This document shows positions 1 to 17,741 of a DNA stretch of 52,653 bases, piece after piece. The notes beneath the pieces were generated by a model. The model was not told the origin of the DNA. It saw nothing but the letters and a program-made list of their open reading frames with translations, and searched no databases. Where the stretch lies: UHGV virus genome UHGV-0083175; one strand, given 5' to 3'. The stretch's first letter is position 1. Each line of letters opens with the position of its first letter. The translations under genes were made by a program, and so were the position numbers. Source of the stretch: a virus.

Positions 1-49
1 TTTTGTTTACCTGCGGGTATTCTTTTGTTGTGTTTACTAAGGAGTAGTT

Positions 50-331
50 ATGGAAGAATTAAGAATATTTCTCAATTCTCTTTCGTCAGATGAACAGCGT
101 ATGTTTGCATGTGAGTGTGGTACTAGCATCGGTTATCTAAGAAAAGCATTGAGTAAAGGTCAAGTGTTAGGGGCATCGTTATGTGTCCTTATTGAGCGAG
201 CCAGTAATGGTGAAGTTACACGTCAGCAACTACGGCCTTTTGATTGGATGAACATTTGGCCTGAGCTGGAAGATACCCAAACGTTAACACAACCACTTTC
301 CAGGAGCTTGATTCATGAAAATCAAGCATGA
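50..331 (+). CDS. Cro/YdaS-family helix-turn-helix regulator
   Basis: 93-aa ORF; HTH-like segment GYLRKALSKGQVLGASLCVLIERASNGEVT resembles YdaS/Cro-type prophage regulators; first gene of the early rightward block. Confidence 0.55.
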   Translation: MEELRIFLNSLSSDEQRMFACECGTSIGYLRKALSKGQVLGASLCVLIERASNGEVTRQQLRPFDWMNIWPELEDTQTLTQPLSRSLIHENQA

Positions 332-752
332 ACATATCCGCATGGCAATGAATGCGTGGCTGCTTTATCCGAGGGTAGGGCGCAAAAAAATCGCTGATGA
401 TATAGCGACAGCATATTTTGAGCTTGAAATGACTTATCCACCAATGCATGACACCTCTACGACAGAGGGTATTGGATTGAACATACAAAATATTTTTCGC
501 TGGCTTGAAAAGGATACGCCTGATGCTGTTGAAAAAATTCAGGCACTAATTCCGGCTATCCTGACTGTTCTTCCGCGTGAACTGCGTTATCACCTCAGTA
601 TTTTTGACACTGTTGAGCGCCGTGCATTACTGGCGGCGCAGGAAGCGTTGAGCACGGCAATTGATGCACATGATGATGCAGTCCAGGCCGTTTACCGGAA
701 AGCGTATTTCAGCGACAGCGGGTCATCCGGCGAATCTGTTGTGGTGCATTGA
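315..752 (+). CDS. CII/YdaT-like prophage regulatory protein
   Basis: 145-aa ORF with AGGAG RBS; sits between Cro-like and replication genes as in Rac-type ydaS-ydaT-ydaU blocks. Confidence 0.4.
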   Translation: MKIKHEHIRMAMNAWLLYPRVGRKKIADDIATAYFELEMTYPPMHDTSTTEGIGLNIQNIFRWLEKDTPDAVEKIQALIPAILTVLPRELRYHLSIFDTVERRALLAAQEALSTAIDAHDDAVQAVYRKAYFSDSGSSGESVVVH

Positions 753-838
753 TATTTATGCCAGACCCCTGCTGATTCTGTTGATTGGGGAATCACAGAA
801 TATCACCAGAGGATGGTTCGTCACAAGATGAGGCAATT

Positions 839-1849
839 ATGGCCGCATTACCATACATGCAACTGTACATAGCTGATTACCTGGCTGACACCATGCATTT
901 GTCCGCAGAGGAGCACGGCGCGTATTTGTTGTTGATGTTCAATTACTGGCAAACAGGGAAACCAATACCTAAAAACAGGCTGGCAAAAATTTCCCGTCTG
1001 ACTAACGAGCGATGGGCTGATGTGGAACCATCCTTGCGGGAGTTTTTTTGCGATAACGGCGATGAATGGGTGCATCTTCGGATTGAGGAAGATCTGGCAT
1101 CAGTCAGGGAAAAATTAACCAAAAAATCAGCCGCCGGAAAAGCATCTGTTCAGGCCAGAAGAAGCAGAAAGGAAGCATATGTTCAAACAAAACAAGAGAG
1201 AGATTTAACAGGCGTTCAAACAAATGTTGGTGTTGTGTTTGAACATGACGCAAACACAAAAGCAACTAATAAAGATACAGATCTAAAAGAATTAAACCCC
1301 ACACATAACGTGCATGAACGCGAGAGTATTCCGACCAGTGAGTCGCATGGTGCGCCGTTGCAGACAGCCGAACCTGAATACCTGGACGGCCTGAGCGAAC
1401 CCATCGGGAAATTTTCGATGACTACTGTCTGGCAGCCGTCGCCGGATTTTCGACAACGGGCAGCAGTGTGGGGTATGGCTCTGCCTGAGCCGGAATTTAC
1501 ACCTGCTGAGCTTGCCGCATTCCGGGATTACTGGATGGCGGAGGGGAAGGTTTTCACGCAGGTTCAGTGGGAGCAGAAATTTGCCCGTCACGTGCAGCAC
1601 GTCAGGGCACAGGTAAAACCAGTCAGCAAGGGGGTAAGCCATGCAGCATCAGGTGGCACGGCATCACGGGCAGTTCAGGAAATCCGGGCAGCACGCGAAC
1701 AGTGGGAACGTGACAACGGATTTATCAGCAACGGAAACGGCCTGGAAGCTGTGGGAGCTTATGGGGGAGGTGTATTCGAACCGCTGGACTCAGAAGAACG
1801 GGGCCGCACCTTCGAAGCTCTGGATTGCCCAGATTGGTGCGATGACTGA
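839..1849 (+). CDS. replication initiation protein (DUF1376 N-domain, DnaT-like C-domain)
   Basis: ORF 785..1849; MAALPYMQLYIADYLADT motif typical of the DUF1376 N-terminus, so start placed at ATG 839; C-terminal FTPAELAAFRDYW resembles DnaT. Confidence 0.65.
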   Translation: MAALPYMQLYIADYLADTMHLSAEEHGAYLLLMFNYWQTGKPIPKNRLAKISRLTNERWADVEPSLREFFCDNGDEWVHLRIEEDLASVREKLTKKSAAGKASVQARRSRKEAYVQTKQERDLTGVQTNVGVVFEHDANTKATNKDTDLKELNPTHNVHERESIPTSESHGAPLQTAEPEYLDGLSEPIGKFSMTTVWQPSPDFRQRAAVWGMALPEPEFTPAELAAFRDYWMAEGKVFTQVQWEQKFARHVQHVRAQVKPVSKGVSHAASGGTASRAVQEIRAAREQWERDNGFISNGNGLEAVGAYGGGVFEPLDSEERGRTFEALDCPDWCDD

Positions 1850-2303
1850 ACAGCAAATCCGTCTGGTCTGCCGTCAGTGCATGGACCGCTGCCGGGCGGG
1901 TGAAACGTGGCCCCCGGACCTGGCTGAGTTTGTTGCGCTGATTTCGGAGAGTGGGGCAAATCCATTTGGTCTTACGGTGGATGCAGTGATGGAAGAGTAC
2001 CGGCGCTGGCGCAATGAATCCTGGCGATACGACGGGAGTGATAAATACCCGTGGCCACAGCCTGTGCTGTACCACATCTGCCTCGAAATGCGTACCAGAG
2101 GGATTGAGCGCCAGATGACGCAGGGTGAGTTAAAACGACTTGCGGAACGGCAACTGACGAAATGGGCAAAGCATGTTGGTAACGGGATGAGTGTTCCGCC
2201 AGTGCGACGACAACTGGAAGGGGCGAAACACCCGCAAGGGCCAACGCCAATTGAACGGCTGAAACAGGAATACGAACGCCGGAAGGCAGCTGGTTTTATT
2301 TGA
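1641..2303 (+). CDS. lambda P-like replication protein (helicase loader)
   Basis: 220 aa; C-terminal DKYPWPQPVLYHICLEMRTRG...GELKRLAERQL parallels lambda gpP; GGGGG RBS before ATG 1641; overlaps the upstream ORF by ~209 nt. Confidence 0.65.
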   Translation: MQHQVARHHGQFRKSGQHANSGNVTTDLSATETAWKLWELMGEVYSNRWTQKNGAAPSKLWIAQIGAMTEQQIRLVCRQCMDRCRAGETWPPDLAEFVALISESGANPFGLTVDAVMEEYRRWRNESWRYDGSDKYPWPQPVLYHICLEMRTRGIERQMTQGELKRLAERQLTKWAKHVGNGMSVPPVRRQLEGAKHPQGPTPIERLKQEYERRKAAGFI

Positions 2304-2336
2304 ATCTGAGAAACGATTTTGTCGGAGGAAATTTTA

Positions 2337-3053
2337 ATGGAAACCGTATTTGACGCACTGAAAGCACTGAAAAGAGCCTCTTCACAGGTAGTGGCGGCCC
2401 GCCTTGGAATCAGCCGTGAAGATGCGGTCAACGAACTGTGGAAACTGAAGCGCCGCGGTGAAGCGGATAACAAGGGTTCGATGTGGTGGCTGATTCAGGC
2501 TGGTGAAAGTGAACCGGTGTCACCGGTACCGAAAGTGACAGCGCAAATGCTGATTAAGGCGATTGAACAACATGGCCCACAAACGGCAGATGAGCTGGCA
2601 CTGATGTTCGGGATTACCTCCCGCCGGGCGAATTCATCGCTGGCCATGGCAATCAGCAAAGGGCGTCTGATTCGCGTGAATCAGGGCGGTAAATTTCGTT
2701 ACTGCATACCGGGCGCTGATTTACCGGCAGAGCCGGAAGCTGCATCCGTAGCGGAAACAGATGGTAAAGCCTTTCCTCAGCCAGCAGGTGTTGCGTTACC
2801 AGTCCGGGAAACGACGACACAGGAAGAAATGAAAACAGAAATCGTGGAAGACATTGTGAAGTTACAGCCATCGGTCACCGAAACGAAAGCAGATGACCTG
2901 ATTCTACCATCGCTGCATGTGGCTAACCGCGAGCTGCGCCGGGCAAAAGGTCAGGTTCAGAAGTGGGAGCGTGTCTGCGCCGCGCTGCGGGAACTGAACA
3001 AACACAGGGATATTCTCCGGGATATTACCGCCACCAGAGAGCTGCTGCGGTGA
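2337..3053 (+). CDS. hypothetical phage protein
   Basis: ORF 2319..3053; ATG 2337 has a GGAGGA RBS; no recognised catalytic motif. Confidence 0.45.
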
Positions 3054-3367
3054 GTGGCTGGAAGAAGTGGCGCTGGGCGGAAATTATGATACTCCGGCAG
3101 TGTGCGGGAACGATGACAGTCGAAAGCATCGGCAGTCTGATTGGCCGTAGTGGGGCTGCCGTCAGGACGAAAGCGCGGGAACTGGGTATCTGCATGATGT
3201 TACGGGGTGATTATCACCAGTCAGCCAAATGTTCACAGCGTGATATTGAGCTGGCGCGGCAACTGCATCAGCGTGGCGTACCCCGACGGGAAATTGCCGA
3301 AAAGTTTGGGATGAAGTTGGGCGCAGTGAATAACTACGTTTATTTCGACAGGAGGGTTCAGGCGTGA
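3050..3367 (+). CDS. putative HTH DNA-binding protein
   Basis: ORF in frame from GTG 3050 (alternative ATG 3086); C-terminal [21 protein letters not shown] resembles sigma-70 region 4 / LuxR-type HTH. Confidence 0.4.
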
Positions 3368-3705
3368 GGGTGAGAATTTATATCGCCGGTCCGATGACGG
3401 GATATGAAAATTTCAACCGTGAGGCGTTTCACAAGGCGGAAGAAGCACTGAAACAGGAAGGGCATACCGTATTAAATCCCGCAGTACTTCCGGACGGGCT
3501 GACTCAGCCACATTACATGGATATTTGCATGGCAATGATTCGTTGTGTGGATGCGGTTTATATGCTGAAAGGCTGGCAGCGGTCGGCAGGCGCTAAGGCA
3601 GAGCTGCACTGGCGGAGAAACTGGGGCATGCAGTTATTTTCCAGGAGGCAACCAGTGAGCGAAATTAATTACCAGGAACTACGGCAGGTGAAAGAGAAAG
3701 CATAA
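3364..3705 (+). CDS. DUF4406-family protein (nucleoside deoxyribosyltransferase-like fold)
   Basis: GTG start overlapping the upstream stop; N-terminal RIYIAGPMTGYENFNREAFHKAEE is characteristic of the phage DUF4406 family. Confidence 0.55.
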   Translation: MRVRIYIAGPMTGYENFNREAFHKAEEALKQEGHTVLNPAVLPDGLTQPHYMDICMAMIRCVDAVYMLKGWQRSAGAKAELHWRRNWGMQLFSRRQPVSEINYQELRQVKEKA

Positions 3706-4679: not shown

Positions 4680-4969
4680 CCTGGCCTGAAGCGTTCATAA
4701 CGGTAGGAATTGCAATGGCGGTGGCGCTGGTGGTGTATTCGATTTGCCGCTGGGGATAAAAACGGTTTGCGGGGAAAGAAGAGTTAAGTAGAATTGCTGC
4801 GGGTGCTTGAGGCTGTCTGCCTCGGGCATGCCGACGTAAGGCAGACAGAGAAAAGCCCCAGTTAACATTATGCGTCTTGCAGGACGCTTAACATTAATCT
4901 GAGGCCATATCTATGACTTGCACACTTAGATTAGCCTCTTATGCGCCGAAAGGCAAGGAGCAGCAGGCT

Positions 4970-5125
4970 ATGAAGCAGCAAAAGGCGATGCTAATCGCCC
5001 TGATCGTCATCTGTATTACCGTCGTTGTAACGGTACTGGTAACGAGGAAAGACCTCTGCGAGGTACGAATCCGAACCGGCCAGACGGAGGTCGCTGTCTT
5101 CACAGCTTACGAATCTGAGAAGTAA
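4970..5125 (+). CDS. hok: Hok/Gef-family membrane toxin (type I toxin)
   Basis: MKQQKAMLIALIVICITVVVTVLVTRKDLCEVRIRTGQTEVAVFTAYESEK is near-identical to HokD/RelF; internal Met of ORF 4913..5125. Confidence 0.85.
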   Translation: MKQQKAMLIALIVICITVVVTVLVTRKDLCEVRIRTGQTEVAVFTAYESEK

Positions 5126-6627: not shown

Positions 6628-6990
6628 ATGCTCATAGATTTGGTTTTACCTTACCCGCCGACGGTGAACACTTACTGGCGACGCCGTGGCAGCACATATT
6701 TTGTATCAAAAGCCGGGGAGCGTTATCGCCGGGCAGTGGCGCTTATTGTTCGCCAGCAGCGGCTGAAATTAAGACTGTCCGGACGGCTGGCAATAAAAAT
6801 TATTGCAGAGCCACCGGATAAGCGTCGTCGTGACCTGGACAATTTTCTGAAAGCGCCGCTGGATGCGCTGACGCATGCAGGAATGTTAATGGACGATGAG
6901 CAGTTTGATGAAATCAATATTGTACGTGGCAAGCCAGTATCTGGTGGACGGCTGGAGATAAGAATTACAGAGGTGGGTGTGCATGAATAA
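6628..6990 (+). CDS. rusA: Holliday junction resolvase RusA
   Basis: 120 aa; RRRDLDNFLKAPLDALTHAGMLMDDEQ and GGRLEIRITE align with E. coli RusA. Confidence 0.9.
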   Translation: MLIDLVLPYPPTVNTYWRRRGSTYFVSKAGERYRRAVALIVRQQRLKLRLSGRLAIKIIAEPPDKRRRDLDNFLKAPLDALTHAGMLMDDEQFDEINIVRGKPVSGGRLEIRITEVGVHE

Positions 6991-7648
6991 CCAGTATTTA
7001 CAGTTTGTTCGTGAGCAACTCATGATTGCCACTGCGGATCTTAGTGGGTCGACAAAAGGCCAGCTGGAAGTCTGGCAGGAAAATGCCCTGTTCGATACAG
7101 GGCGTTACAGACGCAAAAAAATTCGTTACCGCGATGAGGTAACCGGAAAAATGATCACGCGGGATAATCCCCCGATCCCGGGTAAACAATCACTGGCGAA
7201 AGGCTCATCAATTGCCCTGGTCAGTCCGGTTGAGTTTTCGACATCATCATGGCGACGCGCCGTTCTGTCTCTTGAAGAACATCATAAAGCCTGGCTGCTG
7301 TGGTGTTACAGCGGTAGCATTTGCTGGGAGCATCAGATCGCGATAACGCAGTGGGCGTGGACTGAATTTAATGCTCAATCCGGTACCAGAAAAATTGCAG
7401 GAAAAACTCTGGTGCGCCTGAAGACGTTGATCTGGTTGGCGGCGCAGGCGGTAAAAGCTGAGCTTTTTGGTGGGGAAGGTTACGAATACCAGGAACTGGC
7501 GTTACTGGTGGGAGTAACAACCAAAAACTGGTCCAAGACATTTACTGGTCACTGGGTTGCAATGAAACACATTTTTCATCGGCTGGATAGTGAAGCTTTA
7601 TTGTTGGTGGAGGGAACTCGTTCAAAACAAAAGGCGGCATTTTCATAG
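6983..7648 (+). CDS. late-gene antiterminator Q-like protein
   Basis: ATG 6983 overlaps the rusA stop (ATGAATAA); ~220 aa; immediately upstream of a strong promoter and terminator, as expected for Q / PR' / tR'. Confidence 0.55.
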   Translation: MNNQYLQFVREQLMIATADLSGSTKGQLEVWQENALFDTGRYRRKKIRYRDEVTGKMITRDNPPIPGKQSLAKGSSIALVSPVEFSTSSWRRAVLSLEEHHKAWLLWCYSGSICWEHQIAITQWAWTEFNAQSGTRKIAGKTLVRLKTLIWLAAQAVKAELFGGEGYEYQELALLVGVTTKNWSKTFTGHWVAMKHIFHRLDSEALLLVEGTRSKQKAAFS

Positions 7649-9136: not shown

Positions 9137-10195
9137 ATGCTTAATACTGTAAAAATATCCAGTTGTGAGTTAATCAACGCCGACTGCCTGGAATTTATCC
9201 GGTCGTTACCCGAAAATTCTGTTGACCTGATAGTCACGGACCCGCCGTACTTTAAAGTGAAGCCTGAGGGCTGGGATAACCAGTGGAAGGGCGACGATGA
9301 TTACCTGAAGTGGCTGGACCAGTGTCTGGCGCAGTTCTGGCGGGTGCTGAAACCTGCCGGAAGTCTTTACCTGTTCTGTGGCCATCGCCTGGCATCTGAT
9401 ATCGAAATCATGATGCGTGAACGCTTCAGTGTACTGAACCATATTATCTGGGCAAAGCCGTCCGGACGCTGGAACGGGTGCAACAAGGAAAGCCTGAGGG
9501 CGTATTTCCCCGCCACAGAGCGCATTCTGTTCGCGGAACATTATCAGGGGCCGTATCGTCCGAAAGATGCCGGGTATGAGGCGAAGGGCAGGGCACTGAA
9601 ACAGCATGTGATGGCTCCGCTGATTGCTTACTTTCGTGATGCGCGTGCTGCCCTGGGGATAACGGCAAAACAGATAGTGGATGCCACAGGAAAGAAAAAC
9701 ATGGTGTCGCACTGGTTCAGTGCCAGTCAGTGGCAGCTACCGAACGAAAGCGATTATCTGAAATTACAGGCGCTGTTTGCCCGGGTGGCAGAAGAGAAGC
9801 ATCAGCGCGGTGAACTGGAAAAGCCCCACCACCAGCTGCTGGAGACGTATACTTCACTGAACCGGCAGTATGCGGAACTGCAGAGTGAATATAAGCATCT
9901 GCGGCGGTATTTTGGCGTGACGGCGCAGGTGCCGTACACGGATGTGTGGACGCATAAACCGGTGCAGTACTATCCCGGGAAACATCCGTGCGAAAAACCG
10001 GCAGAAATGCTGCAGCAGATAATCAGCGCGAGCAGTCGTCCGGGGGACCTGGTTGCAGATTTTTTCATGGGGTCGGGTTCGACAGTCAAAGCCGCGATGG
10101 CGCTGGGGCGTCGTGCAACAGGCGTTGAGCTGGAGACTGAACGTTTTGAGCAGACGGTCAGGGAAGTTCAGGATTTAGCCAGTCAGAACGGATGA
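9137..10195 (+). CDS. DNA methyltransferase (N6-adenine/N4-cytosine class, DPPY motif)
   Basis: 352 aa; DLIVTDPPYF catalytic motif near the N-terminus and a C-terminal AdoMet-binding FFMGSGST segment. Confidence 0.8.
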   Translation: MLNTVKISSCELINADCLEFIRSLPENSVDLIVTDPPYFKVKPEGWDNQWKGDDDYLKWLDQCLAQFWRVLKPAGSLYLFCGHRLASDIEIMMRERFSVLNHIIWAKPSGRWNGCNKESLRAYFPATERILFAEHYQGPYRPKDAGYEAKGRALKQHVMAPLIAYFRDARAALGITAKQIVDATGKKNMVSHWFSASQWQLPNESDYLKLQALFARVAEEKHQRGELEKPHHQLLETYTSLNRQYAELQSEYKHLRRYFGVTAQVPYTDVWTHKPVQYYPGKHPCEKPAEMLQQIISASSRPGDLVADFFMGSGSTVKAAMALGRRATGVELETERFEQTVREVQDLASQNG

Positions 10196-10396: not shown

Positions 10397-10674
10397 TTAT
10401 CTGCATTATGCGTTGTTGGTTCTGATGAGTGAATCATTGTCTTTTGAGCAACAGGCTATCATATAAGATAGCCTCAGACTTCCTTGTTTATTCTCGCCGG
10501 ATGCTTCGTAGATATTTGCAGGCATCTGTATGCAGGGGTATTATTGCGGCATATATCATCCGGAAAAATAAAAACTACATGCTGATCCGGAGATGATAGT
10601 TACAAGTCCTCCCGGATCCCGCATATTTACTATATTTTATAGATAATTGTTCTTGTTAATATGGAGATGGATAA

Positions 10675-11103
10675 ATGTATTGCCGTGCTGTACCGGTTCT
10701 TGTTTTGATATTAGCCAGTCTGACAACTGGCTGCACAAAAGATGTATCGACAAATAATTATGATGCTTCTCTGTATCACTCAGATAAATTAATAAAGTCG
10801 CAAAATTTGAGCTCATCGGAACGTACCCCTGATGCCAGTGAAGAAATCCGGCTGTATGCCATTCAGGTCAGGAAAGCCATAGAAGAACAGTTAAAGGATG
10901 CGAGTAAGTATTCAGGAAAAGAGTGTTCACTGAGAATGTATATGGCCCCGAATGGTCTTCTGCTACAGGTTAAAAGAGAAAGCGGTGATCCCGATTTATG
11001 TCGTGAAGCGATGAATGCAGTAAAGAATGCTGATATACCATCACCACCGTCTTCAGGAGTATATAAAGCATTTAGAAATGGCGTGCTGGATTTTAAACTC
11101 TGA
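10675..11103 (+). CDS. lipoprotein with TolA C-terminal domain (TolA-III) homology
   Basis: Signal peptide with lipobox LTTGC; C-terminal ~90 aa (GKECSLRMYMAPNGLLLQVKRESGDPDLCREAM...VYKAFRNGVLDFKL) align with E. coli TolA domain III. Confidence 0.7.
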   Translation: MYCRAVPVLVLILASLTTGCTKDVSTNNYDASLYHSDKLIKSQNLSSSERTPDASEEIRLYAIQVRKAIEEQLKDASKYSGKECSLRMYMAPNGLLLQVKRESGDPDLCREAMNAVKNADIPSPPSSGVYKAFRNGVLDFKL

Positions 11104-11168
11104 CAGGGGGAGAAGATTTTCTCCTGTCCTGATGATTTTGGGGCGCTGGAAAGATATTGTGCTGTGAA

Positions 11169-11560
11169 GTGTTAAATCCCTCACAATTCAGTAAGTTGAC
11201 AGTTGCCTGTCAGACTGAGCATTTGTTAAAAAAATTTCGCATGGTGAATCCCCCTGTGCGGAGGGGCGACTGGTGAACGGTATGATCTCTTTGATGATCG
11301 TAAGCGAGAATACGCGGGTTTGGTGTCACCGGGCTGAACTCACCGGGAGGCACCCGGCACCATGCTCATGGTGATACAGAAATGCGGCTTCAGCCCCTCT
11401 CCGGAGGGGCTTTCTTATGGACAAAAAAAGCCCGCGCTGGGAGACGCGGGCGGCAAGGAATAAACAATAAAACGTGAAGTAATACTTCAACTGGCGAATA
11501 ATACCCGACAGTAATCACTCTGCGCAATAGCGCGGCCTTTTTCGAATTGCGGGCTGTAGT
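11169..11560 (+). repeat. structured repeat unit A (with 3' extension shared with unit D)
   Basis: Shares with three downstream units the blocks GTGTTAAATYCCTCACAATTCA, TTGTTAAAAAA, GCATGGTGAATCCCCCTGTGCGGAGGGG, CACCGGGAGGCACCCGGCA and a terminator hairpin. Confidence 0.8.
11239..11416 (+). ncRNA. candidate small RNA, repeat copy A
   Basis: Runs from conserved GCATGGTG to terminator GCCCCTCTCCGGAGGGGC + T-run; 5' CATGGTG can pair with 3' CACCATG; two internal hairpins. Confidence 0.35.
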
Positions 11561-11575
11561 CTCCCTTCTGCCGGG

Positions 11576-11735
11576 TGGCCTGGTTGCAGATTTCTTCATG
11601 GGGTAGGGTTCGGCAGTTAAAGCAGCGATGGCGCTGGGGCGTCGTGCAACTGGCGTTGAGCTGGATACCGGGCGTTTTGAACAGACTGCGCAGGAAATCA
11701 GGGATGTATTTAGCGGGAGCGGTTTGCAGAAGTAA
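11576..11735 (+). pseudogene. duplicated 3' fragment of the DNA methyltransferase gene
   Basis: ~150 nt nearly identical to 10041..10195; translates as GLVADFFMG*GSAVKAAMALGRRATGVELDTGRFEQ with an in-frame stop. Confidence 0.6.
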
Positions 11736-11798
11736 TCTCCCAAAATGCCATTTTTGGAATATACTGGTATTAAGTCTTTTTGCTCAGGTTAATTCAAA

Positions 11799-12524
11799 AT
11801 GGATGTTGCCTGCTCTGTGGTCCTGATTCGCTATCCGATAGATATTTTTCTTGAAAAAGAAAAAGTTTCACTCGATGCCGGAAGTGTTATGCTTGTTGCC
11901 AGAAATATAAGAGGGCTTTTCTGTGCTTATGCCGACAGAGTGAAAATGGCAGATATAAGTAACAGCGTCGTCAATCAGTATCTGGAAAGGGAGTGTGAAC
12001 TGACGGAGTATACACCGACAAAAATGCCTCTTTATTTGATGTCTGATATTTACAATACGGAACTGGCGGAGGCTTTAATAACCCAGCATAGTGAATCCAG
12101 TGATACTTTGAAGGATTTCTCTGTTATAACCGCATTTTCATGTATCTCCTTATTTGCAACAGACAGGCGTCTGCCATTATTTTTGTCCGGTGCTGTAAAT
12201 AATATCAGCTGTAAAGTAAGGGCTATAATTCAGACCGACATATCGGCAGGCTGGATGCTAGGTGTGATTGCATTACAATTGCATATGAGCGAAAGCTTGT
12301 TGAAGCGAAAACTTAAGGATGAAGGTTATAGCTTTAGTCGGTTGTTGCTGGAGGAGCGAATGCGTGTTGCTGTTAATCTTGTATGTTTCCAGCGAGAGTG
12401 TGGACAAGCGATAGCGGAAAAATGTGGTTACTCAAGTAAGTCCTATTTCATTTCTGTATTTCACCAGTATTATGGTGCACCACCTGAGAGCTATGCATAT
12501 TTGCAGAAAGCAGACGTTATCTGA
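11799..12524 (+). CDS. AraC-family transcriptional regulator (moron)
   Basis: 241 aa; C-terminal double HTH (GWMLGVIALQLHMSESLLKRKLKDEGYSFSRLL...IAEKCGYSSKSYFISVFHQYYGAPPESY); AT-rich. Confidence 0.6.
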   Translation: MDVACSVVLIRYPIDIFLEKEKVSLDAGSVMLVARNIRGLFCAYADRVKMADISNSVVNQYLERECELTEYTPTKMPLYLMSDIYNTELAEALITQHSESSDTLKDFSVITAFSCISLFATDRRLPLFLSGAVNNISCKVRAIIQTDISAGWMLGVIALQLHMSESLLKRKLKDEGYSFSRLLLEERMRVAVNLVCFQRECGQAIAEKCGYSSKSYFISVFHQYYGAPPESYAYLQKADVI

Positions 12525-12613
12525 TGTTTTTTCATCAGGCATATATTGATTGACTGTATTAGATATAGTCTGAATGTGTTCAGCATAAAAAGTTATAATC
12601 ATTTGGTGTTTGC

Positions 12614-12892
12614 GTGAATATTGATGAGAAAATCAGATGTAGCCAACTGTTACAGCGTATTGAAGCCGTCAATGTGGAACGAACAAAGGTCTTCAGTCGT
12701 CTGACAGTTTTATTTTGTACCCCTGATCGACGTTCAGGTCAGGAGATGGTTCTTCTGGATGTAGATGCACTTCGGAACGTCTGTGAGGAGTTCACCGCGG
12801 CTAATTCGGAGTTACTGAGTCTTGTTCAGGAGTACAACAGAATTGCAGGTAGTAACGGTTTTGATGAAATCAAAATTATATCCCGTGGATAA
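12614..12892 (+). CDS. hypothetical protein
   Basis: 92-aa ORF with GTG start downstream of the AraC-like gene; no recognised motif. Confidence 0.3.
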   Translation: MNIDEKIRCSQLLQRIEAVNVERTKVFSRLTVLFCTPDRRSGQEMVLLDVDALRNVCEEFTAANSELLSLVQEYNRIAGSNGFDEIKIISRG

Positions 12893-13210
12893 AACATATC
12901 CTGTATATTTATGTTGTTACATACAGGCGCTTTTAGTATCTGCCGCACGGCAGTTGTACTTTAGAATAAGATGCTTTTGTGACTGGTGGTGTTGTATCTG
13001 GGGTTAGCCAGGAGGCAGGTTCAGAGAGTCCGGTGGTAATTATGTGTATGCAGTGGTTGTTGCTGTACCGTGGGCAAGTTCTGGAACTGGCTTCGTCCAT
13101 TGTAGATGATTGTTAGCTGGATATCAGTTACCTCATGGAAATGTTAAATGACTCACAATTCGGTTGATGGACTATTGTCTGATCGATGGAAGTCTTGTAA
13201 AAACGAGCCA

Positions 13211-13377
13211 GCATAGTGAATCCCCCTGTGCGGAGGGGCGTCTGACATGGTCTCCATAGCGATGGTCACAATACGCAGATTCAGTAGTCAGGCTGAATCT
13301 ACCGGGAGGCACCCGGCACTATGCTGCTTATGGTGTATACATAGCGATCGGCCCCTCTCCGGAGGGGCTTTTTTTGT
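13211..13377 (+). ncRNA. candidate small RNA, repeat copy B
   Basis: GCATAGTG...CACTATGC long-range pairing (compensatory versus copy A), conserved hairpins, terminator GCCCCTCTCCGGAGGGGC + TTTTTTT. Confidence 0.35.
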
Positions 13378-13469
13378 GCGGGAAAAGGCTGTGTTGTTAA
13401 GTGTTAAATTCCTCACAGTTCAGATGGTTGATGCTTGCCTGTCTGAGGGGGAGTTGTTAAAAAAGTTCT

Positions 13470-13637
13470 GCATGGTGAATCCCCCTGAGCGGAGGGGCAT
13501 ATCAGCGCAGGTGTTTCTACTCTATCCTTTCTGTGCGGGTTCAGGTGCTGATACTGAACTCACCGGGAGGCACCCGGCATCATGCATATGGTTAACAGAC
13601 ACGTAGCGAAGCCCCTCTCCGGAGGGGCTTTTTTATG
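13470..13637 (+). ncRNA. candidate small RNA, repeat copy C
   Basis: GCATGGTG...CATCATGC pairing with one G-U wobble, conserved hairpins, terminator + T-run. Confidence 0.35.
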
Positions 13638-13729
13638 CAGGGAAAAGGCTGTGTTGTGAAATGTTAAATTCCTCACAATTCATGAGGTTGATGATTGTCT
13701 GATTGATGAGGAGTTTGTTAAAAAAAACG

Positions 13730-13884
13730 GCATGGTGAATCCCCCTGTGCGGAGGGGTGATATCGTATCATTTCATGTGTGGCCGACTGATATCACGGAC
13801 ATTTGTTCACCGGGAGGCACCCGGCACCTGCAGTATACAGAGATTAGGCATACATCCAGGCTCCTCATCGCAGGAGCCTTTTTA
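13730..13884 (+). ncRNA. candidate small RNA, repeat copy D
   Basis: Conserved 5' blocks; terminator replaced by compensatory variant GCTCCTCATCGCAGGAGC + TTTTT. Confidence 0.3.
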
Positions 13885-14115
13885 CATGTAAAAAAAACCG
13901 CTCCCGGGAAGAGCGGTTGGCAAGGAAGCAAGGAATAAATAACAAAACGTGAAGTAATTTATTCAGCACCCTAATAATACCTTAGAGTAATCACCTTGCG
14001 CAACTGTAAGGGCGTATTTCTTTTTTGCGGGCTGTTTTTCTGTGTGACTTTTGTGTTTCCGGAGGTCAGTCCGTGCCTTCTCTGACTCAGAACATTATCC
14101 CGGCCGGGAGGATTC

Positions 14116-16053
14116 ATGGCATTTAAACACTACGATGTGGTCAGGGCGGCATCGCCGTCAGACCTTGCTGAACGACTGACACAAAAACTGAAGGAGGGCT
14201 GGCAGCCATTTGGCAGTCCGGTGGTCATCACGCCTTATACCCTGATGCAGGCCATTGCGGCGGAAGGTGATGTCACCACACCAGTGGCGGTGACCGGTAA
14301 TGAGGGTAAGGCGGTGGCTGTCAGTGCCACCAGCGACCCGGAGTATTACTTTGTTGTGGTTCTGGCAGGGCAGTCAAATGGCATGTCGTATGGTGAAGGT
14401 CTTCCGCTGCCGGAGACATATGACCGTCCGGACCCGCGTATTAAGCAGCTGGCGCGCCGCAGTACGGTGACACCGGGCGGTGTCGCCTGTAAATATAACG
14501 ACATCATTCCGGCGGACCATTGTCTGCATGATGTGCAGGACATGAGCCGTCTTAACCATCCGAAAGCGGACCTGTCAAAGGGGCAGTACGGAACCGTGGG
14601 GCAGGGGCTGCATATCGCCAAAAAACTGCTGCCGTTTATACCGGCGAATGCGGGTATTCTGCTGGTTCCGTGCTGTCGTGGTGGTTCAGCGTTCACCACC
14701 GGAGCTGATGGCACATACAGTGACGCGAGTGGTGCCTCGGAGAATTCAGCGCGCTGGGGTGTGGACAAGCCGCTGTATAAGGACCTTATCGGTCGAACAA
14801 AAGCAGCACTGAAGAAGAACCCGAAAAATGTGCTGTTTGCCGTGGTGTGGATGCAGGGGGAATTTGATTTTGACGGCACGCCCGGAAATCACGCAGCACA
14901 GTTTGGTGCGCTGGTTGATAAATTCCGTGCAGACCTGACGGATATGGCAGGTCAGTGCGTTGGTGGCTCTGCTGGCGGTGTTCCCTGGATATGCGGGGAC
15001 ACGACGTATTTCTGGAAGCAGAAGAACGAATCCACCTGCCAGATGGTGTACGGCAGCTATAAAAACAAAACGGAAAAGAATATCCATTTCGTACCGTTCA
15101 TGACGGATGAGAACGGGGTGAATGTGCCGACGAACAAACCGGAAGAAGACCCGGACATTCCGGGTATCGGGTATTACGGTTCGAAATGGCGTGACAGCTC
15201 AGCCACCTGGACGTCACAGGACAGGGCGAGCCATTTCAGCACCTGGGCACGCCGGGGGATTATTTCCGACCGTCTGGCAACGGCGATTCTGATTCATGCA
15301 GGACGAACCACAGTAAAAGTCGATGCTCCATCTTCTGAAACTGGCGCACCGACGCCATCACCGTCAGAAAATGAAGCGGTAAGCACAACAACACTGCTGT
15401 CTTACCGTGCCAGTGAGTCTGAAGGGAGGCTGACCGAACAGGGCTGGAGTGCTGGCGGAGGTAAAGCGGAAATTGTTGCTGATGAAGGTGCAACAGGTGG
15501 TACCGCGATGAAGCTGAGCAAGGAGACAGGAGTGGGGTCATGGTATCTGGAGCATGATGCCGGTACTGGCGCTGAACTGCTGAAAAATGGCGGTTTAATC
15601 AGCTGCCGCTTTAAGGCATCCGGTGAACTGGTAGCAAATCAGTATGTCATTGCACTTTACTGGCCGGTTTCCTCTCTGCCGCAGGGTGTCACCCTGACAG
15701 GGGATGCAGGGAATAATCTGCTGGCAGCGTTTTACATCCAGACAGATGCAAAAGACCTGAATGTGATGTACCACAATGCGAAGGTGGCGACAAATAACCT
15801 GAAACTGGGAAGCTTTGGCGCATTTGATAACGAATGGCATACGCTGGCTTTCCGCTTTGCCGGGAATAACAGCCTTCAGGTGACGCCGGTTATTGATGGT
15901 CAGGATGGCACACCGTTCACGCTGACGCAGTCACCGGTCAGTGCATTTTCGGCGGATAAGTTGCATGTGACAGACATTACCAAAAGTGCGACTTACCCGG
16001 TACTGATAGACAGCATTGCGGTGGTAGTGAATAACGCGGACGCCGCGGCATGA
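14116..16053 (+). CDS. nanS-p: NanS-p-like sialate O-acetylesterase (SGNH/SASA hydrolase)
   Basis: 645 aa; VVVLAGQSNGMSYGEG active-site region; size and position (upstream of the lysis cassette) match nanS-p of Stx phages. Confidence 0.75.
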   Translation: MAFKHYDVVRAASPSDLAERLTQKLKEGWQPFGSPVVITPYTLMQAIAAEGDVTTPVAVTGNEGKAVAVSATSDPEYYFVVVLAGQSNGMSYGEGLPLPETYDRPDPRIKQLARRSTVTPGGVACKYNDIIPADHCLHDVQDMSRLNHPKADLSKGQYGTVGQGLHIAKKLLPFIPANAGILLVPCCRGGSAFTTGADGTYSDASGASENSARWGVDKPLYKDLIGRTKAALKKNPKNVLFAVVWMQGEFDFDGTPGNHAAQFGALVDKFRADLTDMAGQCVGGSAGGVPWICGDTTYFWKQKNESTCQMVYGSYKNKTEKNIHFVPFMTDENGVNVPTNKPEEDPDIPGIGYYGSKWRDSSATWTSQDRASHFSTWARRGIISDRLATAILIHAGRTTVKVDAPSSETGAPTPSPSENEAVSTTTLLSYRASESEGRLTEQGWSAGGGKAEIVADEGATGGTAMKLSKETGVGSWYLEHDAGTGAELLKNGGLISCRFKASGELVANQYVIALYWPVSSLPQGVTLTGDAGNNLLAAFYIQTDAKDLNVMYHNAKVATNNLKLGSFGAFDNEWHTLAFRFAGNNSLQVTPVIDGQDGTPFTLTQSPVSAFSADKLHVTDITKSATYPVLIDSIAVVVNNADAAA

Positions 16054-16188
16054 TAAAAAAAGCCGCCAGTTACCGGAATGGACTGGCGGTGGTAATACCT
16101 ATGGAGAAAAAATAAAGGAACGATACTTTCGTACTCTGTTTTTTTAAATGAAAACAGTTCTTATTGTCAACAATAACGGTAAGAAATT

Positions 16189-16368
16189 ATGACTTTTATT
16201 CATCAGGTGATGCTGTACTTCTGTACGGCAGTCTGTGTGCTGTATCTCCTTTCGGGCGGATACCGGGCCATGCGTGACTTCTGGCGCAGACAGATTGACA
16301 AAAGGGCCGCTGAGAAAATCAGCGCCAGTCAGTCAGCCGGAAGCAAACCCGAAGAGCCGCTCATTTAG
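16189..16368 (+). CDS. small single-pass membrane protein
   Basis: 59-codon ORF (MTFIHQVMLYFCTAVCVLYLLSGGY...) not in the supplied track; hydrophobic N-terminus. Confidence 0.3.
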   Translation: MTFIHQVMLYFCTAVCVLYLLSGGYRAMRDFWRRQIDKRAAEKISASQSAGSKPEEPLI

Positions 16369-16408
16369 CGGCAACTTTCTTAATCACACCTTTCGACGAG
16401 AAAATCCC

Positions 16409-16654
16409 ATGTCAGAAATTACATCCCTGGTCACTGCTGAAGCAGTGAAGGACGTCCTGCGCTCTGAAGAAGTCCTGAGCGCACTGAAACAGAAACTTCG
16501 CCATAACCTGGAAGCGCGTCTTGATGCAGAAGTGGATGCCATTCTGGATGAACTGCTGGGCGCACCGGCAGTTCCGGAGCCGGAAGGTATCGCGGGTGAG
16601 GGGAGTGCTTCAGATGGCGGTGACCCCACACCTGACAGCGACATGATGATGTAA
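16409..16654 (+). CDS. hypothetical acidic protein
   Basis: Internal ATG of ORF 16235..16654 giving 81 aa ([21 protein letters not shown]...). Confidence 0.4.
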
Positions 16655-16730
16655 GCATGCGCAAGGGACCATCGGTGTGTGCCGGTGGTCTTTATATTGT
16701 TGTGAGCTTCCGGATTGCGGGAGACGGGGT

Positions 16731-16946
16731 ATGTACCAGATGGAAAAAATCACAACAGGTGTGTCATACACCACGTCAGCGGTGGGAACGGGCTACTGGT
16801 TCCTGCAGTTGCTGGACAGGGTTTCCCCGTCTCAGTGGGCGGCAATAGGCGTGCTGGGGAGTCTGCTGTTTGGGCTGCTGACATATCTGACGAACCTGTA
16901 TTTCAAAATTAAAGAAGACCGGCGTAAGGCGGCGCGGGGAGAGTAG
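16731..16946 (+). CDS. class II holin / pinholin (phage 21 S-like)
   Basis: [10 protein letters not shown] dual-start motif; [51 protein letters not shown] closely matches S21. Confidence 0.8.
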
Positions 16947-16949
16947 ACG

Positions 16950-17741
16950 ATGAATAAACAATACGAACTGGTTGTTAAAGGGATAAATATTTACCCGGAT
17001 AAGATTACTGTTACTGTGGCGCTGGAAACTGGTGGGTATACGTCACTGTTGTTGCCAAATGTGGTGATTGATCTTGATCGTGTTGAAGGTGCCCCGCTGG
17101 AGTTTTACGAAGCTGAGGCGAAAAAGAAGGCGAAGCAGTTTTTCATGGATATTGCTGCCGGGTTATGTGAAGGGAACGAACCGTTGCCGGAAAAGCGCCT
17201 CTGTTCAGAAGAGCGGTATACCATACAAATTAACAATGCATATAACACGATACAGTCAGAAAAAGATGATATCGAATCACGCATTGAAAAACTGGAGAAC
17301 AGCGTCGTTGAACTGAATAAAAAACTGTCGGTGCAGATCCCTTCCGAAGGTGAAAAAAAACGCCGTGATGAGCAGTTCGCGGCGTTTTACGATTATTGCC
17401 GGAAAGTGATGAGCAGAAATCTCGCAGAGTGTTTCCGTATTCAAAAAAACAGAGAGCGCTCTGCAAATAGTGAGATTCTGGATAATTTTTTAAAGGGGAC
17501 GCATCTCGCCAGTGATTGTTTCATTGCTCATTCTTTTGGTGGCTTTCATGAGGCCATCAAACATGATGTTGAGAGAAGTCCAGGTATCCTCTGTTCCATT
17601 CCCGTAAGCATCGAAATAGACACAAATACGATAACCGGTGAACTCGTTACCGCCGGAGTCGGTATATTCCGTCATGAGGGGAACGATGCCAAAGGTTCCT
17701 TTACAAAAATCGGGCCGTTCTTTCTGAAGGTAGAGCGATAG
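16950..17741 (+). CDS. hypothetical protein inserted between holin and endolysin
   Basis: 263-aa ORF starting 4 nt after the holin stop with GGGGAGAG RBS; its 3' 252 nt overlap the convergent gene. Confidence 0.5.
   Translation: MNKQYELVVKGINIYPDKITVTVALETGGYTSLLLPNVVIDLDRVEGAPLEFYEAEAKKKAKQFFMDIAAGLCEGNEPLPEKRLCSEERYTIQINNAYNTIQSEKDDIESRIEKLENSVVELNKKLSVQIPSEGEKKRRDEQFAAFYDYCRKVMSRNLAECFRIQKNRERSANSEILDNFLKGTHLASDCFIAHSFGGFHEAIKHDVERSPGILCSIPVSIEIDTNTITGELVTAGVGIFRHEGNDAKGSFTKIGPFFLKVER

Follow-up and report, generated by a model that had tools for sequence, protein, structure and literature searches.

Four units of the STnc100 small RNA family, three of them in tandem, from the moron region of an Escherichia coli lambdoid prophage

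STnc100, a family of small RNAs (sRNAs) carried by prophages, was first predicted in Salmonella, and eleven copies were subsequently reported to be expressed in Escherichia coli O157:H7 strain EDL933, one of which was positive by Northern blot (PMC5331693). A member of the family from Sakai prophage Sp5, EcOnc27, was recovered as an Hfq-crosslinked sRNA encoded 3' of stx2B and opposite AsxR, and is termed sRNA103 in EDL933 (PMC4104026, PMC7873438); its longer Northern band was destabilised without Hfq, in a study by Tree et al. in which eight prophages of Sakai were also found to carry such pairs of convergent sRNAs (PMC4104026). PasD1 and PasD2 of enteropathogenic E. coli (EPEC), two Hfq-dependent sRNAs of 172-173 nucleotides, were identified by RIL-seq (a ligation-and-sequencing method for RNA interactions), in which their chimeras came from the last ~50 nucleotides and a seed, UGUGAG, was predicted just upstream of the terminator; the stability of Pas sRNAs was likewise found to depend on Hfq (PMC8550237). 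A common ancestor of PasD and STnc100 was proposed in a 2026 preprint by Zhu, Shabalina and Storz, in which the Pas copies are dispersed and not tandem. Here we describe four units of this type, termed A to D, in UHGV virus genome UHGV-0083175, a stretch of 52,653 nucleotides that is referred to below as the window; an earlier reading of its letters alone (the original prediction) had proposed that they form a family of structured small RNAs with variable 3' segments.

The four units are copies of STnc100, a catalogued sRNA family of lambda-like prophages, so that the finding is real but already known. A search of the units against Rfam (cmscan) matched STnc100 (RF02076) at 11210-11422 (unit A, 172.4 bits), 13182-13377 (unit B, 119.5 bits), 13441-13640 (unit C, 141.2 bits) and 13702-13889 (unit D, 129.4 bits), with E-values of 1e-25 to 3e-39 against a gathering score of 47 bits, and with every match spanning model positions 1-206. 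Among the 4,227 curated families that were considered at E-values up to 1, riboswitch and aptamer families included, STnc100 was the only one reported at the unit coordinates. A covariance model of our own, built from the 5' domains of 40 relatives and run with filters off, returned exactly four matches across the 52.6-kb window (11239-11365, 13211-13324, 13470-13585 and 13730-13831), with scores ranging from 72 to 97 bits and the highest (97.3 bits) at unit A; these and the four full-length Rfam matches bear out the claim that the units are paralogous. All four lie on the plus strand, unit A alone at about 11170-11420 and units B, C and D head to tail at about 13140-13890, and when aligned they display a mean column identity of 65%, with long invariant runs over two conserved hairpins.

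Every element that had been described for the units was recovered. The shared upstream block is present in all four, and contains TGTTA-N6-TCACA as well as a TTGT(T)AAAAA block; the 5' hairpin was found, in the sequence and in the four-copy alignment, as CCCC(C)UGWGCGGAGGGG, and the second hairpin as CCGGG-AGGCA-CCCGG; folding revealed a private stem within the variable internal arm of each copy; and a hairpin followed by a T run ends each of A, B, C and D. Some of the descriptions required correction. The tail of roughly 25 nucleotides has the length that was claimed for it (24-26 nucleotides), but the tails are not unrelated: they have diverged from one another as homologues, and an (A)UACAGA-like core is common to them. 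Similarly, the long-range helix exists as described in A (GCAUGGUG/CACCAUGC), B (GCAUAGUG/CACUAUGC) and C (GCAUGGUG/CAUCAUGC, with a G-U pair), while in D it is bulged. The STnc100 consensus structure (closing helix, here P0; 5' hairpin, P1; P3; the CCGGG-AGGCA-CCCGG hairpin, P4; and terminator) is kept in the units, except that in D the closing helix is bulged and the standard P3 is absent. The predicted transcripts and their parts, all on the plus strand, are as follows.

11239-11417, plus strand: unit A, predicted transcript of 179 nucleotides
11239-11365, plus strand: unit A, 5' domain, with P0 GCAUGGUG/CACCAUGC, P1, private arm, P3, P4 CCGGG-AGGCA-CCCGG and pseudoknot CUGGUGA/UCACCGG
11366-11391, plus strand: unit A, tail with candidate seed UCAUGGUGAUACAGAAAUGCGGCUUC, the seed role being assumed by analogy with PasD and EcOnc27
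11392-11417, plus strand: unit A, terminator AGCCCCUCUCCGGAGGGGCU then UUCUUA, from a terminator scan (hairpin 11392-11411)
13211-13376, plus strand: unit B, predicted transcript of 166 nucleotides; domain 13211-13324 with P0 GCAUAGUG/CACUAUGC, tail 13325-13349, terminator 13350-13369 then seven U
13470-13635, plus strand: unit C, predicted transcript of 166 nucleotides; domain 13470-13585 with the G-U pair in P0, tail 13586-13609, terminator 13610-13629 then a U run
13730-13884, plus strand: unit D, predicted transcript of 155 nucleotides; domain 13730-13831, tail 13832-13857, terminator 13858-13879 then five U

Evidence that the 5' domain (100-127 nucleotides long in the units) is a conserved RNA structure comes from its relatives. 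These were collected by scanning viral contigs and one genome per species for the P4 15-mer and keeping those matches in which a closing helix was followed by AAU; matches to the 15-mer in GC-rich genomes from outside the Enterobacteria mostly lacked this combination and were set aside as chance, and the genuine members came from Escherichia, Citrobacter, Enterobacter, Superficieibacter, Lelliottia, Siccibacter and Pantoea. Among 40 domains below 90% identity, 82.4% of cells were paired, compared to about 44% with slid partners, and the covariation score was 0.342 compared to about 0.10, values that none of 500 shuffles attained. Homologues keep the pairing and their helices covary; it is pairing, as had been proposed, and not reading frame, that is conserved across some 75 distinct relatives of several genera, the four copies differing by insertions and deletions that are not multiples of three.

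The individual helices contribute to this result in different ways. P0 displays 33 combinations of strands, including GCAUGGUG/CACCAUGC, UUGCGGUG/CACCGCAA and GAGCGGUG/CACCGCUC; for this helix only the variety counts as evidence, because pairing itself was the criterion of selection. The best register of P1 (U11-G29, 12-28, 13-27 and 15-26) is 98.8% paired, and its CCC/GGG is exchanged for GCG/CGC or CCA/UGG around a conserved loop motif, CUNNGCG. The sequence of P4 was fixed by the search pattern in the main set of relatives, but model matches that lack the exact pattern carry the compensatory forms CCUGG/CCAGG and GGUGG/CCACC with the AGGCA loop kept.

In addition to these nested helices, the segment that follows P1 pairs with the loop of P3, forming a pseudoknot that is absent from the nested structure line given with the Rfam match; the segment just 3' of the first hairpin is thus not simply unpaired. 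The pairing strands are CUGGUGA/UCACCGG in A, CUGAC/GUCAG in B and UAUCAGCGC/GUGCUGAUA in C, with many other types elsewhere, and at least six contiguous base pairs can form in 82% of cognate combinations of the two segments compared to 16% of non-cognate combinations. Unit D departs from this arrangement: a one-nucleotide deletion in the 3' strand of its P0 (CACC-UGC) produces the bulged helix, where the orthologue in strain JNE082640 has CACCAUGC, and a nested helix (GUGAUAUC/GAUAUCAC) together with a mini-hairpin replaces both the pseudoknot and P3.

Downstream of the domain, a terminator was found within 110 nucleotides in 72 of 103 distinct combinations of domain and tail, with a median spacer of 26 nucleotides; within positions 10400-14300 of the window, 12 terminator-like sites were identified compared to 3.3 expected, four of them being the terminators of the units. 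Tails and 5' domains recombine freely: the EcOnc27-type tail was found on five interior types of the domain, and the interior of unit C was found with seven different tails. The first 22 nucleotides of the unit D tail are identical to those of EcOnc27 in Sakai Sp5, and the pairing tail of EcOnc27 (CAGUAUACAGAGAUUAGGCAUA) is borne by unit D only, units A, B and C carrying other tails. The Sp5 copy, which scores 207.7 bits with the Rfam model, has an Hfq cluster from CRAC (crosslinking and analysis of cDNA) that lies on its tail and terminator and covers its 3' 80 nucleotides once an offset in coordinates between genome versions is corrected (PMC4104026), and the Northern probe that was used for EcOnc27 is antisense to the tail. 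The idea of an sRNA family with distinct 3' seeds is therefore supported and matches the literature on STnc100 homologues (Rfam, EcOnc27, PasD).

The upstream blocks contain putative promoters, with start sites that are likewise predicted from sequence, and CRP-like sites.

11170-11185, plus strand: unit A, CRP-like site TGTTAaatcccTCACA, whose centre lies at -61.5 relative to the predicted start and which matches the consensus TGTGA-N6-TCACA
11203-11232, plus strand: unit A, predicted promoter, -35 TTGCCT, 18-nucleotide spacer, extended -10 TGtTAAAAA, recognised from sequence and PasD2 geometry
13142-13157, plus strand: unit B, CRP-like site TGTTAaatgacTCACA
13175-13203, plus strand: unit B, predicted promoter, TTGTCT, 17-nucleotide spacer, TAAAAA, with one T of TGT absent
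13402-13417, plus strand: unit C, CRP-like site TGTTAaattccTCACA
13435-13463, plus strand: unit C, predicted promoter, TTGCCT, 17-nucleotide spacer, TGtTAAAAA
13662-13677, plus strand: unit D, CRP-like site TGTTAaattccTCACA
13695-13724, plus strand: unit D, predicted promoter, TTGTCT, 18-nucleotide spacer, TGtTAAAAA

In these putative promoters the extended -10 element is TGTTAAAAA, and the predicted start is the G of GCAUGGUG, 6-7 nucleotides past the hexamer. The geometry is the same as that of PasD2, whose published 5' end (741157) is the G of GCAUGGUGAAUCC, 7 nucleotides past TAAAAA, with TTGACT 18 nucleotides further upstream; the position that the original prediction had proposed for rapid amplification of cDNA 5' ends, the G of GCAUGGUG, thus coincides with that published end. 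A Northern probe for EcOnc13, considered as possible evidence of a start further upstream, matches nowhere in the Sakai Sp3 locus in the form listed in the supplement, and nothing was drawn from it.

The CRP-like site agrees with the CRP core consensus at 9 of 10 positions, and its centre lies at -61.5 (A, B and D) or -60.5 (C) from the inferred start, which is a class I position. The pattern TGTNA-N6-TCACA occurs in the window only at the four units (0.39 occurrences being expected by chance), and when 76 distinct regions upstream of relatives were scored for the CRP core, 28 attained at least 8, as did 2.7% of shuffled sequences; 27 of these 28 lie at -60.5 to -62.5. Each unit probably possesses a class I CRP site at about -61.5, through which CRP might control it.

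Taken together, these observations lead us to consider the units as separate sRNA genes of the STnc100 family, kin of EcOnc27/sRNA103 and more distantly of PasD1 and PasD2, that work in the following manner, a reading to which we assign a probability of roughly 0.8. Each unit would possess its own sigma-70 promoter, with a weak -35 element, the extended -10 TGTTAAAAA and, probably, the class I CRP site, and transcription would start at or beside the G of GCAUGGUG. The first 100-127 nucleotides would fold at once into an 8-base-pair P0, P1, the pseudoknot and P4 with its AGGCA loop; a tail of about 25 nucleotides and a Rho-independent terminator would follow, releasing an RNA of 155-180 nucleotides in which the terminator hairpin, the U tail and the tail segment would together form the part that binds Hfq and pairs with targets. 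Because the four tails differ, the units should address different mRNAs. During lytic growth, polymerase that has set out from PR' and been modified by Q should transcribe past all four terminators. The 5' domain might act as a protective or insulating 5' cap that also binds an unnamed factor, which is our best guess at its role. Within this scheme, family membership, the covarying fold, the terminators, the copy number and the shuffling of modules were demonstrated in the present analysis, while expression, Hfq binding and contact of the 3' region with targets were shown for homologues and would extend to these units by analogy, as would the seed function that we infer for these particular tails.

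Several points weigh against this reading. The data on expression and Hfq come from homologues, in strains other than those that bear the array. A generic sigma-70 scan reported nothing at the proposed promoters; that scan demands a T at the last position of the -10 element and is blind to hexamers that end in A, as these do. The conservation of the CRP-like sites may reflect shared ancestry, since the sites are paralogous and belong to one promoter lineage. EcOnc27 migrates on Northern blots at about 235/247 nucleotides, compared to the 174 nucleotides given by its predicted start and stop, implying that some transcripts are extended at one end, either 5' or by readthrough just past the stretch complementary to AsxR. 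The U tract of the unit A terminator is interrupted (UUUCUU), and the minimum-energy fold of unit A pairs P1 with the look-alike terminator rather than forming the consensus (z = -2.3); for B, C and D the minimum-energy fold is that of the nested consensus (z = -3.24, -3.44 and only -1.41, respectively). Finally, the loops and junctions within the 5' domain hardly vary, which a model based on seeds leaves unaccounted for, the domain being conserved beyond what a scaffold would require; nor does such a model extend to those instances in which the domain precedes transfer RNAs (tRNAs) or open reading frames (ORFs) with neither tail nor terminator; as the body also occurs in such settings, its conservation is not explained by the seed.

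A complete relative of the 5' domain lies in the dicF-dicB spacer of the Qin prophage in E. coli K-12 MG1655 (NC_000913.3, 1649455-1649580; L246 1456-1581 among our loci, and also L024 2931-3056 on the minus strand), with P0 AUGUGGUG/CACUGCAU, pseudoknot CAGUUAA/UUAACUG and P4 CCUGG-AGGCA-CCAGG. Our own model gives this relative 71.8 bits, that of Rfam 34.4 bits, which is below threshold, and it corresponds to no feature in the K-12 RefSeq record; a query comprising the spacer and dicB was matched by 4,651 of the 5,426 E. coli genomes that are complete. The processing of dicBF RNA by RNases III and E was considered as a clue to its role and set aside, as the published sites create the 5' ends of DicF and are silent on the domain downstream. 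In a viral contig from IMG/VR (L072), domains that lack both tail and terminator occur at 339-458, 686-802 and 1312-1423; a tRNA-Arg at 810 (then a tRNA-Gly) and a tRNA-Met at 1431 lie 8 nucleotides past domains, according to model and ARAGORN coordinates. In five further contigs (L035, L069, L110, L063 and L071) the domain stands directly before ORFs with a Shine-Dalgarno sequence. On this basis we tentatively propose, as a possibility that we hold well short of even odds, that the 5' body of STnc100 goes beyond the role of a scaffold and is an RNA module in its own right, pseudoknotted and about 100-140 nucleotides long, which prophages of Enterobacterales use as a portable leader for sRNA tails, phage tRNAs and ORFs, dicB among them. 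Its parts would be a closing helix that abuts the 5' end, the P1 loop CUNNGCG, the pseudoknot that links the P3 loop to the segment after P1, and P4 with the invariant GGAGGCACC; if the proposal is true, the invariant loops would mark a binding site for a conserved host or phage factor or ligand that acts on stability, processing or elongation.

The same observations lend some weight to the view that the units are mainly cis-acting leaders, in which the 5' domain, placed after a promoter in the manner of a riboswitch aptamer or an attenuator, would act as sensor or stabiliser and control the next unit or the nanS-p esterase gene, and the sRNA would be only the terminated leader. The order of promoter, domain, terminator and gene is that of an attenuator, and unit D, EcOnc27 and PasD2 all lie directly upstream of a co-oriented esterase gene; the same domain in other phages runs into tRNAs or into ORFs with Shine-Dalgarno sequences, dicB of K-12 included; its loops and junctions are conserved in sequence, in the manner of RNAs that bind ligands or proteins; and in unit A the pairing of P1 with the terminator offers an alternative fold. 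Against this, unit A precedes a gene remnant, and B and C precede further units, leaving no gene to be controlled after these three; a convergent gene and a second terminator intervene between D and the esterase gene; what follows the domain is too diverse for a single switch, with no antiterminator pairing conserved across tail types; no riboswitch family was matched; and the homologues act in trans on Hfq. We consider it unlikely that the units are mainly of this kind, while a cis-acting role as a stabiliser, sensor or factor-binding site is still a live rival to, or addition to, function as separate sRNAs.

A more specific possibility is that the 5' domain resembles the put RNAs of phage HK022 and binds polymerase in cis to confer resistance to termination. 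The resemblance, which is no closer than that of a promoter-proximal, highly conserved and structured RNA in lambdoid-phage operons that contain terminators, is opposed by several facts. Put RNAs consist of two stem-loops, with neither a closing helix nor a pseudoknot. The whole HK022 genome yielded no match, either to Rfam STnc100 at E-values up to 1 or to our own model with filters off; a strong terminator lies about 25 nucleotides past the domain, and the homologues accumulate as discrete terminated RNAs; and in the dic operon the domain comes after the DicF terminator and not before one. We regard this explanation as very improbable. Least credible of all is that the repeats are non-functional duplicated DNA (the boundaries of morons spread by recombination) or protein-coding, given that, while the units clearly act as recombination substrates and an ORF of 119 aa (13247-13606) runs across B and C with one of 68 aa in D, the former has no Pfam match, the copies preserve base pairing and not frame, and the homologues are expressed RNAs.

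The prophage is a lambdoid one of E. coli, and the units reside in its 'moron' region, downstream of the antiterminator gene Q and the late promoter, and positions 11100-14120 are 99.9% identical to the chromosome of E. coli strain N51. The gene order runs from Q through two small ORFs, a DNA methylase gene, tRNA-Met(CAT), tRNA-Arg and an ORF with similarity to the TolA C-terminal domain to unit A, and then through a methylase remnant, an AraC-type regulator, a small ORF and units B-C-D to a SASA/DUF1737 esterase gene (nanS-p type) and the lysis genes. There are no stx genes at this locus, the neighbouring morons being the TolA-C-like ORF and the AraC-type regulator, and EcOnc27 in Sp5 and PasD2 in strain E2348/69 occupy the same place, between Q and an esterase gene. 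No RefSeq record that was examined annotates the units as non-coding RNAs.

6977-7648: antiterminator Q (PF06323)
9137-10195: intact DNA methylase
10675-11103, plus strand: ORF with a TolA C-terminal domain, a secreted-looking moron cargo
11575-11735, plus strand: 3'-terminal remnant of a DNA methyltransferase gene, for which related genomes carry a pseudogene annotation
11799-12524, plus strand: AraC-family regulator (HTH_18/HTH_AraC), a moron cargo
14116-16053: SASA esterase, nanS-p type, by Pfam match

The methyltransferase remnant between unit A and the AraC-type gene suggests that a past recombination event joined two moron regions and brought B-D beside A. Among 5,426 complete genomes of E. 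coli, 85 contain the junction between tandem units, most of them in two places; strains N51, 05-3629 and RM10466 are examples of carriers of the array, and the number of tandem units differs by strain, being either three or four. Strain JNE082640 has four; its extra unit comprises the domain of D and the tail of C, joined at the invariant core, which is the signature of an unequal crossover. In Superficieibacter electus (NZ_PQGD01000029.1), three STnc100-type units lie 257 bp apart on the minus strand, with promoters, tails and terminators unlike those of E. coli, and this independent triple implies that tandem expansion of the STnc100-type family extends beyond E. coli. Elsewhere in the window, a hok/sok-type toxin-antitoxin locus is present at 4801-4975 on the plus strand, with an ORF at 4913-5125 and a match of 113 bits to sok RNA (RF01794); strain N51 carries a Hok/Gef gene at the corresponding place.

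Two units, A and D, are faced by candidate sRNA genes on the minus strand, while units B and C are without such a convergent partner.

11423-11527, minus strand: convergent sRNA candidate facing unit A; putative promoter TTGCGC-18-TATTAT at 11527-11498, predicted RNA from 11491 to 11423 (69 nucleotides), terminator 11451-11430 then seven U
13888-14003, minus strand: convergent sRNA candidate facing unit D; putative promoter TTGCGC-18-TATTAT at 14003-13974, predicted RNA from 13967 to 13888 (80 nucleotides), terminator 13918-13896 then eight U

The blocks that follow A and D are homologous to one another, the terminators of the candidates stand back to back with the STnc100 terminators of A and D, both predicted RNAs contain CCUUGC, and that facing unit D includes a duplicated UUCCUUGC. 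The minus-strand candidate resembles an EPEC candidate from RIL-seq, E2348C_1409.E2348C_1408.IGR, which has the seed CUUGCG. Identification of the candidates as AsxR or AgvB was rejected: RF02703 and RF02702, which stand for the conserved 3' ~42 nucleotides, gave no match at E-values up to 1 in 10400-17500, whereas Sakai AsxR itself scores 88 bits. After each of the two dyads the plus strand carries a second terminator-like hairpin, CUGCGCAAUAGCGCGG then CCUUUUU (11520-11535 and 13994-14011), and a hairpin homologous to it is the terminator of the long-tailed sRNA in PasD-type relatives. Directly past the stop codon of the esterase gene lies a further convergent sRNA-like unit (16055-16170, minus strand), with TTGACA-17-TTAAAA and a terminator CCGCCAGU...ACUGGCGG then seven U; it matches Esr41 weakly, at 23.8 bits compared to a threshold of 102. 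A PasA-like sRNA had been considered at this position, and was discarded because no match to the PasA probe target was found with up to three mismatches, the Esr41-like unit being present there instead.

In the form in which it was first reported, the finding adds little, since the units are members of a curated family that any Rfam-based annotator would label. Their status as a known family, the promoter-like nature of the upstream block, the pseudoknot and the occurrences of the domain without a seed could not have been deduced by the original prediction, and new leads of moderate interest may lie in the tandem layout of the units, in the pseudoknot and the CRP-like site, and in the broader use that is made of the 5' domain. 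If confirmed, the pseudoknot should be added to the STnc100 family model; the relative between dicF and dicB would offer, in K-12, a tractable model for the role of the domain; and CRP acting at -61.5, which is a testable regulatory input, and the diversification of seeds by tail shuffling and unequal crossover within a tandem array would be of specialist interest. There is also a possible clinical connection. Variants at +90 and +103 after stx2B belong to a set of features that predicted haemolytic uraemic syndrome (PMC12711010), and by our own reading of the Sp5 sequence they appear to fall around the promoter and start of the Sp5 unit; promoter-region variants of the copy linked to stx2 would thus be tied to the clinical outcome of O157 infection, yet RefSeq leaves such genes unannotated.

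In comparison to described systems, the units share with STnc100 (RF02076) at large the closing helix, the hairpins, the tail, the terminator and the setting within a prophage. They differ in that three of them are arranged head to tail, at distances of 260 and 260 bp from start to start; no description of such an arrangement was found for the family, and the eleven EDL933 copies all lie far from one another. A close relationship exists to EcOnc27/sRNA103: the promoter block of unit A is nearly the same, unit D shares the first 22 nucleotides of the tail and has a terminator that differs by compensatory changes, and EcOnc27 is likewise situated just upstream of an esterase gene, facing a convergent small RNA. 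It differs in its stx setting, in having a pseudoknot where unit D has a nested helix, and in having AsxR as its partner. The dyads of AsxR and AgvB described by Tree et al. (2014) resemble those of the window in their relative place, in a homologous region upstream of the promoter and in the back-to-back terminator, but differ in the sequence that is transcribed, which is unrelated to that of the window partners.

PasD1 and PasD2 (EcOnc13 in Sakai Sp3) occupy the same position between Q and the esterase or lysis genes; their promoters agree in geometry with those of the units, and their 5' end lies at GCAUGGUG. Their core is decayed, P1 lacking the GCG loop and P4 being reduced to AGCGGGAGGCGCC; the domain model gives PasD2 only 31.4 bits, compared to 72-97 for the window units, and PasD2 misses the Rfam threshold. 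The PasD tail is about 60 nucleotides long, with the seed UGUGAG and another terminator, whereas the window units have a full core and short, different tails; their assignment to PasD proper was rejected, as they display neither close identity nor a long UGUGAG tail. With respect to its layout, the array is reminiscent of OmrA/B, PrrF1/2 and Qrr, which are sets of side-by-side paralogous sRNA genes, each with its own promoter and terminator, whose pairing regions have diverged; the array of the window differs from these in being carried by a prophage, in having a copy number that varies between strains, and in being composed of shuffled modules.

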